A stretch of 64,000 nucleotides of DNA from a virus (lineage: Duplodnaviria; Caudoviricetes). The notes under the pieces were generated by a model. The model was given only the letters and a program-made list of their open reading frames with translations, was not told where the DNA came from and ran no database searches. Shown here one piece after another: positions 3,571 to 56,973 of the stretch. Made by a program: the position numbers and the translations under genes. The stretch's first letter is position 1, and every line of letters begins with the position of its first letter. The stretch lies in the IMG/VR virus record IMGVR_UViG_3300033066_001396, positions 1 to 64,000 of that record. One strand, written 5' to 3'.

Positions 3571-5193
3571 TTATTTTTTTATGTATACGTTTTCAATAAT
3601 TAATCCATCCATTTCAGTGCTCTCGAGAATTGTCATGGCATCACGAACACTTGAAAGGATAGGCTTGCCATCGACATTAAACGACGTATTTAAAAGAACC
3701 CCAAATCCTTTTATATTATCAAACTGAGTCAATAGATCGTATAAGAATCTATTATTCTCCCGGGTCACTGTCTGTACCCTGGCAGTGCCGTCAATATGTG
3801 TTATGCTTGCTAGCTTCTCCCTCCATTCTTCACGAACAACTGGGCAGAAGCTCATCCACCTACTCTCTCCTTCAAAGTGGAAATACTTGCTGACATCCTC
3901 AAGTCTGACTACCGGAGCAAAAGGCCTATACCATTCCCTGTGCTTTACCTTAGCATTAAGAACATCTTTCATGTTTGGATATGAAGGATCACATAATATA
4001 CTTCTATTTCCCAGTGCGCGGGCACCATGTTCTGATCGTCTTCTGGCCACCCCAATAATCTTTCCGTCAGCCAAATCCTGGGCAACTAGTTTACGGCTTG
4101 CATTCTGTACAGTATAGTTAATAGGTGAGTTTTGTAGATATCCAAAAAGCATTGAGGCATCCATTAACTCTATTCCTGAGTACGTGGCATCATAAGGCTC
4201 TGCAGGCTTAAGGTGGTTAAGCATCATACCCAGTGCAATACCACAATCGTTTGGATTGGGACCAATAAAAACATCTCTTTGCTCTCTTATTTTAGTGTTC
4301 AATAGAATATTTAGCGCACAACCTCCTACAAATACCAGTGGCATTTCTGGATACTGGTCTATATATGGCTGGGTAACCTCAAAAAAACAGCTTTCAAAGG
4401 CTGCCTGGCTAGTAGCCGCAACATTATAAGCAATTTCATCATAAAGACGATTGTTAATGTCAAAAGATACACCTATGTGCCGACCAATGATGTCATTGAC
4501 CATTGTGTACTGATTAACCTGAGAATCCGGCGCAAACACGCCTCCTGGATTCTTTTTGTAAAAATCTATAAAAAATGGAAGCCATTCTTTCACCACAGAA
4601 CCATATGAGGCCAAGCCCATGATCTTGCCTGGATAAACAAGGTTCCCTATGGTTAGAGATTCATACTTTATATCACCAAGGAACTCTCCAAAAAACATGT
4701 ATGGGTATCCAAGGTCATATTCCTGCACCTGGTCATATGGGTTCATTACGCGTTGCAGTAAAACAGGAGACTGCCCCCGCTTGCAGGTATATATATTAAA
4801 CTTGCCATCATTGGCGCCACCATCTACTGAAAATATAAGCGCCTCAGAATATGGTGACTGATAAAAACCACCAGCCGCATGAGATTGATGGTGTAATCCG
4901 TAAACATATTTATTGGCTGGGATGAACTGATCAAGATGATATCTATCAGTAGTGATAACATCCGTATTCATATAAAAGCAGGTGTCAAACTTCTGCACAT
5001 TATATTTTCTCATAATGTGCCCTGCCATATACTTTGCAAGGTACACAATAAGATTATATCGTGGACACATATATTGAGCCATGCCCACATTCTTAAAGTT
5101 CAAAAAACGCTCCATCTCTAAGACCTCAAGGATCTTGCCATTCTCCTCTACAACAAATGTTGCATTATGAGAACCATAAAAAGCTATATTCAT
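3571..5193 (-). CDS. O-carbamoyltransferase, NodU/CmcH/TobZ family
   Basis: HHQSHAA, VDGG, GKIMGLASYG, GGCALN, NDCGIALG, GARALGNRSIL, KHREWYRPFAP, HIDGTARVQTV, LLNTSFNV motifs. Confidence 0.93.
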   Translation of the reverse strand: MNIAFYGSHNATFVVEENGKILEVLEMERFLNFKNVGMAQYMCPRYNLIVYLAKYMAGHIMRKYNVQKFDTCFYMNTDVITTDRYHLDQFIPANKYVYGLHHQSHAAGGFYQSPYSEALIFSVDGGANDGKFNIYTCKRGQSPVLLQRVMNPYDQVQEYDLGYPYMFFGEFLGDIKYESLTIGNLVYPGKIMGLASYGSVVKEWLPFFIDFYKKNPGGVFAPDSQVNQYTMVNDIIGRHIGVSFDINNRLYDEIAYNVAATSQAAFESCFFEVTQPYIDQYPEMPLVFVGGCALNILLNTKIREQRDVFIGPNPNDCGIALGMMLNHLKPAEPYDATYSGIELMDASMLFGYLQNSPINYTVQNASRKLVAQDLADGKIIGVARRRSEHGARALGNRSILCDPSYPNMKDVLNAKVKHREWYRPFAPVVRLEDVSKYFHFEGESRWMSFCPVVREEWREKLASITHIDGTARVQTVTRENNRFLYDLLTQFDNIKGFGVLLNTSFNVDGKPILSSVRDAMTILESTEMDGLIIENVYIKK

Positions 5194-6041
5194 CTAAAAA
5201 AGTTACTAAATGATACTTGGTTGGGATCGTAGGCATCCTTCCAGTCTTCATGATAAAATGTGTCAAACATCCATATGCTGAACCACTGAGGATACTTATT
5301 TACAATGTAAGTACTTATCTCCTCGTCATTACACAAATAATCGGTGAGAAGAAGTCGATGGATTAAGGCGTAAGCTTCGGTTGTATATTTCATTAAGTAA
5401 TCAAAAGAGCCACCGAAAAATCCTCCAACAGGATATGCCTCAGCATGAAAATCACCAAGTTCTTTCTTTAGTCCCAATATGTCAGCATCAGTAGATGGAC
5501 GACACAATACCACAATCTTGCCTTGTACTCTATCCTCTATCTTTTTTAGAGTGCCTGGGGTGAAGGCTAGATCATAATGGTATGAATTTTGCACTCCTTC
5601 TAGGTCATATGATCGCATAGAGCCCGGGAAGAGTCCACTATGGGACAGACCGCAATCAATCCAAAAAACATTCTGTCCCATATCGGCCTCTTTATGCAAG
5701 AAAACGAACTTTGACCAGTATATAATTGATGGCCTGTGGTACCTGTGAATCTTGTCAGGATCGTCGTATTCTTCTGGATTTGACTTCCTTATTGACAATA
5801 CCCTATTAAACCAGGGGCTCTCCTCAAGAACATAAACTTTTATAGTAAGATTACTGAGATTGTTCTTTTCCTTGAAAGCAGTAAGTTGATCATATCCACG
5901 GTTATCAGTATAGCATACTACTGGACAGCCAAAACCACATATTGACCGTAAAGAGTAAAGATACCACAGTTCTCTACTCATCTGTCCCCAGTACGGGGCA
6001 CCAAGATGATTGGCGTAATATGCTGTAACTATTTTTGCCAT
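5190..6041 (-). CDS. HtrL/YibB-like putative glycosyltransferase
   Basis: KIVTAYY, WSKFVFL, FWIDCGLSH, VGGFFGG, DEEI; paralogous to the middle domain of 1263..3563. Confidence 0.65.
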   Translation of the reverse strand: MAKIVTAYYANHLGAPYWGQMSRELWYLYSLRSICGFGCPVVCYTDNRGYDQLTAFKEKNNLSNLTIKVYVLEESPWFNRVLSIRKSNPEEYDDPDKIHRYHRPSIIYWSKFVFLHKEADMGQNVFWIDCGLSHSGLFPGSMRSYDLEGVQNSYHYDLAFTPGTLKKIEDRVQGKIVVLCRPSTDADILGLKKELGDFHAEAYPVGGFFGGSFDYLMKYTTEAYALIHRLLLTDYLCNDEEISTYIVNKYPQWFSIWMFDTFYHEDWKDAYDPNQVSFSNFFR

Positions 6042-19663: not shown

Positions 19664-19920
19664 TAAGCGAAGCCAGCGGCTTTATCTGCCAAATAAGCTG
19701 CTTCTGTCGCCCAGGTCCACGTTCCGTTCTTTGAGTATCCCACATAACGAACGCCGGTAACGGAATCGTCTAAGGTGAGTGTGTTGTTGCAACAATTGAC
19801 ACCGCAGCATCGTCGTTCAGTAACACGATCAAGAACCTCACCCATATCGGTGAGGCCTTGATTTTGTTTTGTATCGTGAATCAACCCGATCTTCGCCAGT
19901 ACACCGCTAAGAACTCCCAT
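19663..19920 (-). CDS. Hypothetical protein
   Basis: TAATG coupling on both sides; RCCGVNCC motif. Confidence 0.7.
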   Translation of the reverse strand: MGVLSGVLAKIGLIHDTKQNQGLTDMGEVLDRVTERRCCGVNCCNNTLTLDDSVTGVRYVGYSKNGTWTWATEAAYLADKAAGFA

Positions 19921-21626
19921 TAGTGACTAGTTGAAGGGGTTACGGAAATAGAGATGCTAGGGGTTACGGAAATACTTTTCGTTACGGAATGTGTAATCGA
20001 TACGCTCTTAGTAACAGAAGGTGTTACGGAAGGCGTGGCATATGGTGTAGTGCTTACGCTTGGTGTTGGAGGTCCTGGGTTAGGATCTTCGGTACAAGCG
20101 ATGTCAACAATGCCATAGCAGTTATTTACATTCTTAAGCGCATTAAGATCATCTACAAGAGCTTCCTTCTGTGCGAAAGATTGGGGTATTGCAATAATAT
20201 TCCTTACCACGGTGCTACCAATCAGCCCAATAGGGTCTGCCCAATGGCCGTACGCGTTAGCCTCCCAGCTGATTACACAGTAAGGAGTAGGACAGTCAAG
20301 AAGAACTCCTTTGCTCCTGGCAATATCGAGTAGTTTGTCATATTGGCCACCTGTGCGTAACTCTGAATCATTATATCCAGGTCGTGGCTCAGAGCCATAG
20401 GCATCTTCCCACAACTGCACTCCAAATCCTTCTGGAGACACAGCCGGAACCACTATCTCAAAGACGCCATCAACAAATCCTTCGATAGCTGACACATCTA
20501 CATTGGTTGGATAATAGGTTACTGGGTAGTCACTCTTGCCAAGGCAATCACATCCTTCTTCTGCAAGGTCGCCAACGAAGCCAATGGCACAGCCATAGGT
20601 CTTGGTCTGTGATGCTGCAGAACCGCAGTTGACACAGTTTTTAGGAATAGTCCTCGAGAAGGAAACCGCTTCACTTCTACATGGATCAATATAAGTGCCA
20701 TCATGCTTGATGAGTTGAACGCCCATGCATGAGTTTATAGTAAGCTCAATGTCGATGCAGGATGAGGACAAGTCTCCATCACTGATCCAGGCTGCGCCTT
20801 GATGAGCATTGAACGCACACCATATCTCATTCAGCAGTTGATTGATTTGGCTTGCATTGGTTGTTGTAGCAGAACTGAGGGTGCCACTGAACAACGTATC
20901 TACACCCTGGATACGGACACCTTTGATGCCTGTATATGAATCACATACTCCGCAATCTCCGGCAACACCGGTAAGGCAGAAGATGTAATTAGTAGGGTTG
21001 TATACAAAGGCCTTTACAGGCTTTGGCTCTTCACGATAGTCAAAGAACCCGGCATTGTTTCCCATGGTTCCGTTAAACATATCAACCATGCCACAGGCTA
21101 TCTCACGACAATATGTGTCATCATCGCATGTATCACATGCCGCATTAACACTGGTGTCATAGGAAATAGGATACCTAGCCGCCTTATCCATTGCATACTC
21201 CTGGCGAGTACGGTTGGATTGGATGTCTACGTTCAAACCGTAAATGGTATTCTTTCTTACACAATCAAAAAGCCATCGGCTCACTTCTCTGCGGCCTATG
21301 TTGGGGGCAACAGCGTGCATACTCAAAACGTTATCCGCGCTGATCTTGTCTCCAATGATCTTATCGATCCGATCAATCACCCCAAACTTATTGGCCTTGT
21401 ATTGTCCCAAAATTAAATTGGGGACATTAGGAGTGGCTGATGGGTCTACGCTGATACCGTCAGTGTTCTTATAGAACACAAACATATCAGGTAATGCTTC
21501 AGCTGGATAGGTAACTCCCTTACCCTTGATACAGTTTCCGGTAGGACAACTATGGGCTTTGATACCTGCAGGCAGAATACCATTGTCCTTGTTGCTTACC
21601 AAATACCTCTGTTTTGTTACACTCAT
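19920..21626 (-). CDS. Cys-rich putative capsid-associated structural protein with C-terminal mucin-like tag
   Basis: Third gene after MCP, where crAss-like phages encode auxiliary structural proteins; ends TPSVTKSVSITHSVTKSISVTPSISISVTPSTSH. Confidence 0.65.
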   Translation of the reverse strand: MSVTKQRYLVSNKDNGILPAGIKAHSCPTGNCIKGKGVTYPAEALPDMFVFYKNTDGISVDPSATPNVPNLILGQYKANKFGVIDRIDKIIGDKISADNVLSMHAVAPNIGRREVSRWLFDCVRKNTIYGLNVDIQSNRTRQEYAMDKAARYPISYDTSVNAACDTCDDDTYCREIACGMVDMFNGTMGNNAGFFDYREEPKPVKAFVYNPTNYIFCLTGVAGDCGVCDSYTGIKGVRIQGVDTLFSGTLSSATTTNASQINQLLNEIWCAFNAHQGAAWISDGDLSSSCIDIELTINSCMGVQLIKHDGTYIDPCRSEAVSFSRTIPKNCVNCGSAASQTKTYGCAIGFVGDLAEEGCDCLGKSDYPVTYYPTNVDVSAIEGFVDGVFEIVVPAVSPEGFGVQLWEDAYGSEPRPGYNDSELRTGGQYDKLLDIARSKGVLLDCPTPYCVISWEANAYGHWADPIGLIGSTVVRNIIAIPQSFAQKEALVDDLNALKNVNNCYGIVDIACTEDPNPGPPTPSVSTTPYATPSVTPSVTKSVSITHSVTKSISVTPSISISVTPSTSH

Positions 21627-46285: not shown

Positions 46286-46597
46286 ATGAAAGTATTATTA
46301 GAAGGCCACCGCTACATAGCGGCCAATTTTGAAAACCCAGACCATGGTCAGGTTATTCAGTTCATACACAAAGAGCCCATAGTTGCAGGGCAACCGGAAT
46401 TAGAAACCCTGAGTGATGGTACTACCAATGAAGAATTGTTGGCTGTGCTTATCGACAGGATCCAGTATCTTAATAAAAAATTCCCAAGCAGGGAAAATAG
46501 CATTGTGATCACAAAGCTCGAGGAGAGCCTTATGTGGTTGAATAAGAGGACTGCAGATCGTAAGAGTAGAAATGTTGAAGGCAAGGCAATGGTGTAG
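46286..46597 (+). CDS. tad1: Tad1-family anti-Thoeris cyclic-nucleotide sponge
   Basis: GHRY..IQF..GTTNEELL.VLIDR....FPSRENSIVITKLEESLMWLNKRTADR..RNVEG matches the Tad1 pattern HEY..IKFQ..G...DLL.IVRDR...F..RENA.ALT.VEEALMW..RR..DR..RNV.G. Confidence 0.82.
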   Translation: MKVLLEGHRYIAANFENPDHGQVIQFIHKEPIVAGQPELETLSDGTTNEELLAVLIDRIQYLNKKFPSRENSIVITKLEESLMWLNKRTADRKSRNVEGKAMV

Positions 46598-50341: not shown

Positions 50342-50413
50342 GTGAACGTAGCTCAGCGGTAGAGCAGTGGACTCTAAATCCACCGGTCATGGGTTCAACT
50401 CCCATCGTTCGCT
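50342..50413 (+). tRNA. Amber-suppressor tRNA, anticodon CTA (reads UAG); amino-acid identity uncertain
   Basis: Full cloverleaf: GTGAACG/CGTTCGC, D-arm GCTC-AGCGGTA-GAGC, anticodon arm GTGGA-CTCTAAA-TCCAC (CTA at 50374-50376), T-arm ATGGG-TTCAACT-CCCAT, U73, no encoded CCA. Confidence 0.9.
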
Positions 50414-50426
50414 CAAAATATCAGCC

Positions 50427-52787: not shown

Positions 52788-53252
52788 ATGAAATCAGGAG
52801 TAGAACTTATTGCCGAAGAAAGACTGGAACAGATCTTAAAACACGGCATAACAACTGAAAGAGATGTTGAAGAAAATTGTGATTATCAGTTACGTATTGG
52901 AGCAATGCGATTAATTGGTGATCGAGATGATTATCCTGCCCCTAATGGATGGAATAAGGCTCTGTGGGCTAAGATGATATCTAAACCACACAAAGATCGA
53001 TTGATAATTGCCGGTGCTTTGATAGCTGCTGAAATTGACCGGATTCAGGAAGCGGAGAAAGACAAAAATGTCGAACCCAAATCAAAAACCTACCAAGAGA
53101 TGCAAATGCTCTTAACCCTTTATAGCATAGATCACAAGGTAATAGACCTTACTGAGGACGGTAATGGTTATGGTAAGGTGATCTGCATTAAAAACGAAGA
53201 CCTGAAAAAGCTTGAATATTTAAAACAAATCTCAAACGAATTAAACCAATGA
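52788..53252 (+). CDS. Conserved phage hypothetical protein
   Basis: GVELIAEER..Q..KHG.T.E.D; LIIAGALIAAEIDR. Confidence 0.7.
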   Translation: MKSGVELIAEERLEQILKHGITTERDVEENCDYQLRIGAMRLIGDRDDYPAPNGWNKALWAKMISKPHKDRLIIAGALIAAEIDRIQEAEKDKNVEPKSKTYQEMQMLLTLYSIDHKVIDLTEDGNGYGKVICIKNEDLKKLEYLKQISNELNQ

Positions 53253-53611
53253 ACAGAAGTACTTTTTTAAAAACGCTCTTTGGGCTGACCCTGGCTCCCT
53301 TCGTCCCGGTCCACAAAAAACCAACCACATACAAATTTATGAGCCCAGACGTACTTCTCGGAGGCACCAGCTGGATACAAGAAAACTGTCACCGCTCCTA
53401 TTCTATATCCCGGGATCCGGTAAATTCCTTTGAGTATGTGGATCGAAGCTTTACTGGTAACTCCATCTATCATCCTGGCACAGGATTCTTTGAGTACGCG
53501 GATACGCAAAATATGTACCTTTTTGACTCACAAAAACTTACCATGGGAAAATTGTCAAAAATGTTTGTTGAATTAGAAAAAACAAAAAAGTATCTTAGCA
53601 CCATGAAATAG
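53249..53611 (+). CDS. Hypothetical protein with degenerate Tat-like N-terminus; ends at the TAG inside the Pth2-like frame
   Basis: MNRSTFLKTLFGL...; in frame with 53603..53947. Confidence 0.6.
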   Translation: MNRSTFLKTLFGLTLAPFVPVHKKPTTYKFMSPDVLLGGTSWIQENCHRSYSISRDPVNSFEYVDRSFTGNSIYHPGTGFFEYADTQNMYLFDSQKLTMGKLSKMFVELEKTKKYLSTMK

Positions 53612-53947
53612 ATTAAATTAATCACCGTCGTCCGGAATGATCTTGTCCCAGGATCGCAGCTTGTTCAGTCAATGCACGCAGCCATGGACTTCGCCCACAA
53701 CTATTCACACTTACCTTCATATATTGCCTGGCGCGACAGCCTTTATATCGTAAGTCTGTCAACATCTCAGAAATCACTATTCGCTCTATGCGACAAGCTT
53801 GACAGCCTGCAGATCATTTACCAGCCATTTACCGAGCCCGACATGGGCAACGAACTGACGGCAATATGTATCGAGCCTACTGATGCGGCACTGAAGGCAG
53901 TATCTCATTTACCACTAGCATTAAACAATTTAAATCAAATATTATGA
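53603..53947 (+). CDS. Pth2-like (peptidyl-tRNA hydrolase II fold) protein with in-frame amber at codon 3
   Basis: ATG AAA TAG then IKLITVVRNDLVPGSQLVQSMHAA...YIVSL...FTEPDMGNELTAICIEP...VSHLPL; the family N-terminal motif lies upstream of the track start 53672. Confidence 0.8.
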
Positions 53948-55824: not shown

Positions 55825-56472
55825 ATGAAATGTACAAGATGCGGCAAAGAAGCCTATAATCACCGCCGCTGTGATGCCTGCATAAGGAAATGGACTGACA
55901 TGAGAGCCACAATATGGGAAACCCTCACCATCAAATACGGAAAATTCTCCCCAGAGAACATCAAAGAATGGCAAAAGGAAACCAGAAAGCTCGAAAACAT
56001 ATGGAAAAAGGACGAAACCAAATTCACAGAAGCTATAAACAAAATCCACATGACAGACTGCTACTTCATCCCCTCAAAAGAATCCTCTTCCGCAACCATC
56101 TGCGCTAACTGCGGCCAAGAAAAAATGGTACACACCGCAGGCGAAGGCCTTAAAGCAAGTAAAGTCATCATGAACTTTACCCAAGAAGAACAAACAGAAC
56201 TCCAAAGGCTCTCAACTATCATCCACTACAAACAACCCACATATGACGACCTGGAAAAAGCCGACGCCCTTTCAAGGAAAAAAATTGGGTATCAACAGAG
56301 CCTCAAGCCAGTAACCCTTACGCGCATCCCCCATAAATTCAAAAAAATCCTTGTAAAAAAAGACGGTTCCACCTGGCACCTATCTAACTCCGAAGTAAAA
56401 GACTGGGAGAAAGCCGGCTCAATATCCCCGGGCGACATACTTTACCGAATAGTCACCGACACCCTTTACTAG
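55825..56472 (+). CDS. Hypothetical protein with CxxC motifs
   Basis: CTRCG..CDAC..CANCG; TAG stop directly followed by an in-frame ATG. Confidence 0.6.
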   Translation: MKCTRCGKEAYNHRRCDACIRKWTDMRATIWETLTIKYGKFSPENIKEWQKETRKLENIWKKDETKFTEAINKIHMTDCYFIPSKESSSATICANCGQEKMVHTAGEGLKASKVIMNFTQEEQTELQRLSTIIHYKQPTYDDLEKADALSRKKIGYQQSLKPVTLTRIPHKFKKILVKKDGSTWHLSNSEVKDWEKAGSISPGDILYRIVTDTLY

Positions 56473-56973
56473 ATGAAAAAAATTACAGCCAACGACATAA
56501 GCCGACAACTGATAGGGTGGGTGCAGTCTTCCGGAGCCGAAATATGCATACCCAACTACTACTACGGACCCTATGAAATGGACTTGTTCCGCCTTACAAC
56601 CTCTGGCTACGTATATGAATACGAAATAAAAGTATCGTTACAAGACTTTCGAAAAGACCTGGCAAAATCACAAAAGGTGTATAACCGGTCTGAAACAAAA
56701 AAACACGAGACAATGGCCTCAGGAACCGCAACACCCAACAAGTTCTATTTCGTCGTCCCAGAAAACCTAGTACCCCTAAAAGAGATCCCCCCATATGCCG
56801 GCCTCATCTGCTTCTGCAGATCCCGACCATTTCTAAAAACAATTAAGCCCGCCCCCTTTATTCACCGCAACCCATTCCCCCAAGACAACTATAAGAAAAT
56901 AGCTCTCTCCCTTTCCTGGCGCGAAATAAGACTGCGCTCAAAGATAATCAGACTCACAAAGCCTTCTACGTAG
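56473..56973 (+). CDS. MmcB-like PD-(D/E)xK nuclease-fold protein
   Basis: EMDLF...YVYEYEIKVSLQDFRKD, PNKFYFVVP, PPYAGLI. Confidence 0.7.
   Translation: MKKITANDISRQLIGWVQSSGAEICIPNYYYGPYEMDLFRLTTSGYVYEYEIKVSLQDFRKDLAKSQKVYNRSETKKHETMASGTATPNKFYFVVPENLVPLKEIPPYAGLICFCRSRPFLKTIKPAPFIHRNPFPQDNYKKIALSLSWREIRLRSKIIRLTKPST

Follow-up and report, generated by a model that had tools for sequence, protein, structure and literature searches.

In the first 64 kilobases (kb) of the 124,566-base-pair IMG/VR virus record IMGVR_UViG_3300033066_001396 (hereafter the window; the record is ∼80% complete and has 41.5% G+C), we analyzed a gene of the peptidyl-tRNA hydrolase 2 (Pth2) superfamily that carries an in-frame TAG as its third codon. 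We favour the reading, at a probability of roughly 0.65, that this TAG is a conserved gate, that the protein would be made only when a phage-encoded tRNA with the anticodon CUA decodes it, and that gene and tRNA form a cassette widespread among phages. The early stop recurs in most relatives of the gene, its type follows the anticodon of a linked tRNA, the gene is under purifying selection, and the code elsewhere in the genome is the standard one. Judged by these comparisons, the cassette looks like a natural translational switch and not like a broken gene. The homologs and tRNAs also lend support to the core of the original prediction, which had been made from the letters of the window and held that the full-length protein requires UAG readthrough supplied by a nearby tRNA(CUA).

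Anatomy of the gated locus

The locus occupies positions 53249–53947 of the window. Its features, together with those of the tRNA, are as follows; L067 is the contig of a sister phage described in the next section.

50342–50414, plus strand: amber-suppressor-type tRNA with anticodon CUA, class I, discriminator U73, no encoded CCA (ARAGORN; Rfam RF00005).
53249–53611, plus strand: open reading frame (ORF) A, 120 amino acids, N-terminus like a signal peptide; the ATG shares bases with the TGA of the gene before it, and the ORF stops at the gate TAG.
53575–53602, plus strand: A-rich initiation region without a Shine–Dalgarno (SD) motif, within the end of ORF-A (genome start-site statistics; kept in L067).
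53603–53605, plus strand: inferred start codon of the Pth2-like gene, ATG (same position as the ATG in the commonest leader of the family).
53609–53611, plus strand: the gate, an in-frame TAG at codon 3 that doubles as the stop of ORF-A (reading frame; kept in L067).
53612–53944, plus strand: Pth2-like domain (protein P0002), 111 residues (phrog_1866 at 1e-9; family alignment).
53945–53947, plus strand: true terminator TGA, which a CUA tRNA does not read (from the sequence).

The codons across the junction are TAT CTT AGC ACC ATG AAA TAG ATT AAA TTA ATC ACC GTC GTC CGG AAT GAT CTT. Directly 3′ of the gate, the ATT at 53612–53614 is followed by IKLITVVRNDLVPGSQLVQSMHAA, and the frame stays open as far as the TGA at 53945–53947. 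The sequence and its reading frames thus agree in every position with the anatomy that had been predicted, ATG-AAA-TAG-ATT leading into an intact domain. The first in-frame ATG, GTG or TTG after the TAG is the ATG at 53672, which already lies within the domain, and a product begun there would be without the first strand and the near-invariant residues R8, D10, L11, Q16 and Q19. The ATG at 53603, two codons before the TAG, is the only start in a context typical of this genome: AAAAAACAAAAAAG stands upstream of it at −26 to −13 and AAA is its second codon, matching the genome's start context. Indeed, gene starts of this phage have an SD motif in 4 of 89 cases, ∼55% A at −17 to −10 and A-rich second codons. 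Around the window gate we found no stable RNA structure that could stimulate readthrough (z-score −0.24). Features like those of prfB, the release factor 2 gene, were likewise absent from the gate, with no SD-like motif and no +1 shift, the domain staying in the same frame.

The gene is intact in a sister phage

Using a homolog of ORF-A, we found L067, a 30.6-kb contig from another sample that is syntenic with the window at 77–93% nucleotide identity, ∼85% across the neighbourhood. Its junction is identical to that of the window, TATCTTAGCACC ATG AAA TAG ATT AAA TTA, and it has its own tRNA(CUA) 3.6 kb upstream. Over the Pth2-like part, 17 codons differ between the two phages, 14 of them synonymously and three non-synonymously, and the gate is kept; this codon comparison shows the Pth2-like gene to be under purifying selection. 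Since the same TAG is present in an independent assembly and most of the change is synonymous, a sequencing error or a decaying pseudogene is excluded.

The early stop recurs in relatives

A single-sequence search of IMG/VR found no relatives; an exhaustive search yielded 680 representative ones. For the analysis of gene starts, 57 IMG/VR loci were pooled with metagenome contigs, giving 55 non-redundant starts. In 35 of these, the interval from the nearest upstream stop to the first strand contains no start codon, and nearly all of the 35 have the same gated layout of an ATG, 1–8 codons, a stop, 1–7 codons and KLxxVxRxDL. An ATG at most eight codons upstream of the bounding stop was present in 33 of the 35 family loci, which are not phylogenetically independent, compared with 9.4% of 617 ordinary ORFs from the same loci. 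The gate is at codon 3 in 15 loci, at codon 4 in four and at codon 5 in eight, with an overall range from codon 2 to codon 14. The commonest leader, ATG-AAA/AAG-TAG-[A/G]TN ('MK*I/V', the asterisk marking the stop), is that of the window and is shared by L010–L017, L022, L032, L074 and L075. An early in-frame stop, whose conservation in homologs had been proposed as a test, is therefore mostly kept, at codon 3 to 5.

Gene calling conceals much of this pattern. Among the best 149 representatives, ∼30% have been called with a start inside the domain, and each of the six N-truncated relatives with DNA (P0019, P0139, P0122, P0142, P0143 and P0089) hides an early stop. Their leaders are MNK*ITTE, MKNT*VHHKL, MKDINTEYTSSET*GSQGRL, MT*ITKKL, MT*VNEKL and MKDT*VHLKIDKL, the last with a TAA gate, and the neighbouring genes on their contigs have no in-frame TAG. 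Database leaders of the form M-K-x-Q-[I/V] suggested a glutamine at the gate, a candidate that we rejected, as both readable cases (P0004, MKK*INNQKL, and P0007) proved to be TAG called as Q. Sense codons at this site, which had been named as evidence that would tell against the gate, were thus not what the homologs held. Protein databases hide the gate in two ways, by a false glutamine, as in P0004 and P0007 (loci L068 and L069), and by cutting other members back to an internal TTG or ATG. As separate observations, a second in-frame TAG lies inside the domain in L016 and L057, and L006, a contig with the gated cassette, carries two TnpB/OrfB_IS605-type genes (4642–5727 and 19835–20339).

Two further properties of the gated genes fit decoding of the stop, not termination. 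The base 3′ of the gate is a purine in 34 of the 35 loci; in these loci, 38% of ordinary TAG stops are followed by one. A 3′ purine favours amber suppression. Furthermore, none of the 29 TAG-gated genes with a readable terminator ends in TAG (all have TAA or TGA), against a background TAG share of 14.5% among long ORFs.

Gate type follows the anticodon of a linked tRNA

The tRNA(CUA) of the window has a complete cloverleaf and scored 69 bits against Rfam RF00005 (E 4e-15). A UAG-reading tRNA 3.2 kb upstream had been predicted, and both ARAGORN and Rfam bore it out, on the same strand as the gate. It is identical to the L067 tRNA at 71 of 73 positions, with diverged flanks, and one of the two changes retains a stem pair (G-C to G-U). 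Similarity to other tRNAs was uninformative as to its identity, the best non-suppressor matches being ∼0.7 identical and scattered over 12 amino-acid classes.

Among the 35 gated loci, a TAG gate is accompanied by tRNA(CUA) in 25 and a TGA gate by tRNA(UCA) in three, without a single mismatch, although these counts are not phylogenetically independent. In 26 of the 28, gene and matching tRNA share a strand, and the two mostly lie within 3 kb of each other. The co-occurrence with a cognate tRNA that the original prediction had asked of homologs accordingly extends to the stop type, with the anticodon matching it in all 28 paired loci. Later scans added four more TAG loci with tRNA(CUA), and the extra scans aimed at further TAA or TGA gates found only more TAG gates with tRNA(CUA). 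The seven gated loci in which no canonical suppressor was detected are mostly on contigs shorter than 2.2 kb or have the gene at a contig edge, and one of them has a tRNA with a 'ccta' loop beside the gene. In L005 (670–746), the tRNA that directly follows the gated gene has an anticodon loop of 8 bases with this reading.

A maximum-likelihood tree put the window in a group of 26 rows with long branches, every one of them gated. Loci gated by TGA (L047; L033/L034) or TAA (L008) were nested among TAG-gated ones, so that the codon of the gate and the anticodon have switched jointly at least twice. Where more distant family members begin at an ordinary ATG, most are followed by a tRNA(CUA), which begins ∼300–400 nucleotides after the first strand, directly 3′ of the gene. 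As these ungated members still adjoin a tRNA(CUA), protein and tRNA are linked even without a gate.

The family also reaches cultured phages. In Mycobacterium phage Bxz1 (L070, NC_004687, 94696–95509), gp154 is preceded by ATG-TAG-GTG; the protein is annotated as 'peptidyl tRNA hydrolase' in ∼200 cluster C mycobacteriophages. The annotated 'tRNA-OTHER' ∼300 nucleotides downstream of gp154 was read by ARAGORN as tRNA(CUA).

Both the leaders and the tRNA link bear on what the mini-ORF could do when the gate is not suppressed. Formally, ATG-AAA-TAG is a two-codon minigene, and very short ORFs are prone to peptidyl-tRNA drop-off. Like the bar minigenes of phage lambda, it might shed fMet-Lys-tRNA and load the host Pth, the leader itself having the selected function. 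We hold this to be very improbable. Leader length varies (gate at codon 2 to 14), as does the last sense codon (AAG, AAA, ACA, GCT, CAT, AAC and others), and no particular tRNA would be targeted. Nor would a minigene explain why a cognate suppressor tRNA is linked or why the domain is intact and in frame. With the codon before the gate varying among relatives, the predicted minigene burden found no specific support. The bar minigenes (AUG-AUA-UAA) do resemble the window mini-ORF as two-codon phage ORFs that end in a stop and through their conceptual link to peptidyl-tRNA hydrolase. However, they are free-standing and toxic via drop-off of one tRNA, whereas the mini-ORF of the window is in frame with a conserved domain, belongs to a family with variable sense codons and has a cognate suppressor tRNA.

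The genome uses the standard code

Suppressor tRNAs are a typical feature of phages with a recoded genome (bioRxiv 10.1101/2021.08.26.457843), and some relatives of the window protein were gene-called with TAG as Q. Both facts would suit a global recoding of TAG (code 15); a recent nonsense pseudogene or an assembly error would be other sources of the early stop. Taken together, we regard these explanations as extremely improbable. In a greedy ORF set over the whole record, coding density is 94.1% (0.941) under table 11 and 94.0% (0.940) with TAG as sense. Under table 11, no stop interrupts structural genes as long as 1,788 amino acids, and stop usage in the record is TAA 81, TGA 64 and TAG 15. 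Listing all ORFs that gain an internal TAG when TAG is read as sense revealed no other credible in-frame TAG gene in the 124.6 kb; the other ORFs listed either run on briefly beyond a TAG stop, are spurious frames or belong to neighbours with an ATG of their own. The unchanged density, the long open genes and the sole credible in-frame TAG argue against global recoding, as does the lack of in-frame TAG in neighbouring genes on related contigs. No release factor gene and no glutaminyl- or glutamyl-tRNA synthetase (GlnRS/GluRS) gene was found in the genome. The independent assembly, the purifying selection and the deep conservation of the gate rule out a pseudogene as well as an assembly error. 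On this evidence the phage uses the standard code, with an amber-suppressor-type tRNA and exactly one gene that needs it. The same density comparison in related 20-kb loci was noisy owing to tRNA arrays, and we drew no inference from it.

The phage methyltransferases have their closest counterparts in phages of Flavobacterium, Cellulophaga and Polaribacter, which, together with the SD-less, A-rich gene starts, suggests a host of the Bacteroidota type. A scan for sigma-70 promoters and terminators over 49.4–54.7 kb gave counts no better than those of shuffled sequence, the host being probably of the SD-less Bacteroidota type. Elsewhere in the window, 46286–46597 encodes a 103-amino-acid protein with an Acb2/Tad1 hairpin domain (PF24729, 32.6 bits), a candidate for a sponge-type protein against CBASS or Thoeris defence. 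Its gene has TAG as the stop, and readthrough there would lengthen the protein by 15 residues.

A divergent member of the Pth2 superfamily

As a single sequence, the window protein scored 19.2 bits against Pfam PF01981, below the cut-off of 23, and matched phrog_1866 at 1e-9. Invariant and near-invariant positions were defined on an alignment of 48 family members, and a profile of this alignment was run against solved structures. The profile matched those of Pth2, with 2zv3 at E 1.1e-11 (positions 6–106), 24bt at 6e-10, 1rzw at 1e-9, 1q7s at 5e-8 and 1wn2 at 8e-7. By this match over the whole domain, the family belongs to the Pth2 superfamily; the likeness noticed at the outset, weak for the single sequence, is thus confirmed at the level of the family.

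In the alignment, the window protein keeps R8, D10, L11, Q16, Q19, H22, W40, S43, E75, P76, D77, T83 and L102. Of these, E75-P76-D77 are near-invariant to invariant and T83 is invariant, and the profile alignment places the canonical Asp (from the D-A-G...T pattern of Pth2) one column off D77. The family shares with archaeal and eukaryotic Pth2 (PF01981; 2zv3, 1rzw/3erj, 1q7s Bit1, 1wn2, 1xty) the domain size, the homology of the whole domain at profile level, the Q..HA motif and, probably, an acidic residue and a Thr in the second half. Unlike Pth2, the phage family has invariants of its own, namely R8, D10, Q16, Q19, W40 and E-P-D.

The largest departure concerns the Gly-Lys-Gly-Lys loop after the first strand, which carries the catalytic Lys in Sulfolobus Pth2. 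In the phage family the loop is shortened to P-G-x-Q, two residues fewer than in 2zv3. The position facing the catalytic Lys is variable and is a Ser in the window protein (PGSQLVQS). The caveat that the canonical catalytic Lys is not evident therefore holds in the alignment to 2zv3, and with this loop shortened, hydrolase activity of the protein is not assured.

ORF-A and a possible readthrough fusion

The frame of the Pth2-like domain is open upstream to the ATG at 53249, and readthrough from ORF-A would give a 232-amino-acid fusion, a possibility already raised in the original prediction. ORF-A has no family match in Pfam, PHROG or NCBIfam. Its homolog in L067 (P0154, 10001–10306) is 56% identical, with in-frame indels that keep the frame open and with the same YLSTMK end. 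The N-terminus of ORF-A is Tat-motif-like (MNRSTFLKTLFGLTLAPFVPV) and almost identical in L067, whereas divergence, including in-frame indels, is seen in the middle of the protein.

In this phage lineage, the functional product could then be the fusion, as a programmed C-terminal extension of ORF-A, and not the stand-alone protein of 113 amino acids. In line with this, ORF-A is in frame with the gate in both phages despite its indels, and other family members are naturally fused to N-terminal domains of 100 to 130 amino acids. We still find it quite unlikely. The ATG-AAA-TAG-ATT leader is the same as the stand-alone start of the family, and a signal-peptide-like N-terminus would sit oddly on a tRNA enzyme of the cytoplasm. 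Moreover, the other gated loci have stops a few codons 5′ of the leader ATG, so that no upstream ORF is fused there, and a comparison of ORF-A with the N-terminal domains of known fusions found no similarity, so that homology between them was rejected. On these last two grounds, we regard the fusion as a by-product. The initiation region (53575–53602) is conserved in L067, unlike the remainder of the 3′ half of ORF-A, and the terminal YLSTMK is probably kept because it overlaps the initiation region of the Pth2-like gene.

Proposed mechanism and points against it

If the gate is decoded as we propose, ribosomes would load at the A-rich site and initiate at the ATG at 53603, or would arrive from ORF-A. 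At the UAG at 53609, termination by release factor 1 (RF1) would then compete with insertion of an amino acid by the phage tRNA(CUA). Decoding would yield the 113-residue hydrolase-like protein, plus the 232-residue ORF-A fusion as a side product. Output would follow the activity of the suppressor tRNA relative to RF1, so that the level of the protein would report suppression. The protein would most likely act on an ester-linked tRNA species, in a role tied to the suppressor; peptidyl-tRNA or aminoacyl-tRNA that the suppressor gives rise to, or that is the suppressor's own, may be the substrate. The loop may be feed-forward, with clean-up after readthrough made only on demand, or may be negative feedback that limits the suppressor. 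A more specific version, which we consider doubtful, is a self-limiting module, in which the specific target of the enzyme would be its partner suppressor when charged or carrying a peptide, or else ribosomes that have paused at the matching stop, while its own gate senses suppression and closes a negative feedback loop. If true, such a module would be a tRNA-based analogue of the autoregulation of release factor 2, in a standard-code phage that runs a controlled, low level of readthrough.

Several points weigh against this mechanism. That this tRNA is expressed, that it is charged and that it decodes the gate are all three steps that we infer, and its G1-C72 pair and U73 indicate no obvious synthetase by identity elements. 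The stop–anticodon counts come from loci that share ancestry, and the TGA cases amount to about two lineages only. The shortened loop leaves the protein without the canonical catalytic Lys. Furthermore, about ten ordinary genes of the phage end in TAG, often followed by A, and an efficient suppressor would add 1–28 residues to their products. It would also join two pairs of in-frame neighbours. In the first (55825–56973), the junction is TAG-ATG at 56470–56475, a stop followed by an immediate start within the window; in the second (75126–77297, outside the window), an 88-amino-acid ORF, a TAG and a cytosine methyltransferase follow one another in the same frame. With these TAG-ended genes exposed to readthrough, suppression must be partial, timed or tolerated. 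Finally, the codon directly after the window gate is ATT, a rare bacterial start, as it is in 16 of 35 relatives, and in Bxz1 the TAG is followed by GTG, the annotated start.

These last two points would be expected if ATG-AAA-TAG were a tiny upstream ORF and the protein arose by initiation or reinitiation at the ATT at 53612 without any suppressor, the tRNA being linked for some other reason. An ATT or ATA follows the gate in 19 of the 35 loci, family members beginning 'M-KL...' exist, and the TAG-ATG at 56470–56475 shows the same order of stop and start within the window. This account fails for the remaining loci, as 16 of the 35 have GTA, GTT, AAC, ACA, ACT, GGC, GAC, GCG or CTG after the gate and no ATG, GTG or TTG before the first strand. 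It would also leave unexplained why the stop type tracks the anticodon (TGA with UCA) and why the terminator avoids the gate codon. We therefore judge reinitiation to be unlikely and prefer decoding of the gate by the linked suppressor tRNA.

Relation to known systems and significance

Recoded phages with suppressor tRNAs, in which TAG is read as Gln (code 15) or TGA as Trp (code 4), are known among crAss-like, Lak and other gut phages (Borges et al., bioRxiv 10.1101/2021.08.26.457843; Peters et al., PMC9523058). In the former study, late and lysis genes are recoded either genome-wide or in blocks, and a tRNA, a synthetase and a release factor make up 'code change modules'; no hydrolase, 'peptidyl' or Pth is named in it. 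As in these phages, a phage tRNA would read a stop codon that lies in frame within a phage gene, and gating by suppressor availability has been proposed for them. The window genome differs in using the standard code, with TAG still ending about ten genes and exactly one gene bearing an internal stop. The position of that stop is fixed, next to the start codon, and the gene it controls would encode a translation-related enzyme instead of a late or lysis function. PTH2 has been seen in jumbo phages and suggested to aid ribosome rescue, with no mention of a gate or a link to suppressor tRNAs (Iyer et al. 2021, PMC7824862). Our search of a literature library found no paper that describes the cassette or joins a suppressor tRNA with PTH2.

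By analogy, the nearest system in logic would be the autoregulation of prfB, minus the frameshift. In both cases, a translation-factor gene has an early in-frame stop at which decoding versus termination would set the output. However, prfB escapes its UGA stop via a +1 frameshift and an internal SD motif, and its own product senses that stop, whereas the window gate would need a dedicated tRNA, leaves the frame unchanged and shows no stimulatory structure. Stop-codon recoding with phage suppressor tRNAs is known; the window cassette differs from it in having a single conserved client in a standard-code phage.

For the family itself, one consequence is that gene callers mis-annotate its members, by N-terminal cuts or a false Q. 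For the many standard-code phages whose suppressor tRNAs have no known purpose, the cassette offers a concrete, conserved client gene. A natural pair of stop gate and tRNA could also interest builders of orthogonal translation switches. More broadly, the family shows that a single sentinel stop beside the start, matched to a linked tRNA, can persist across deep divergence, and such a stop may be a step toward full stop-codon recoding or may be a regulatory device in itself.

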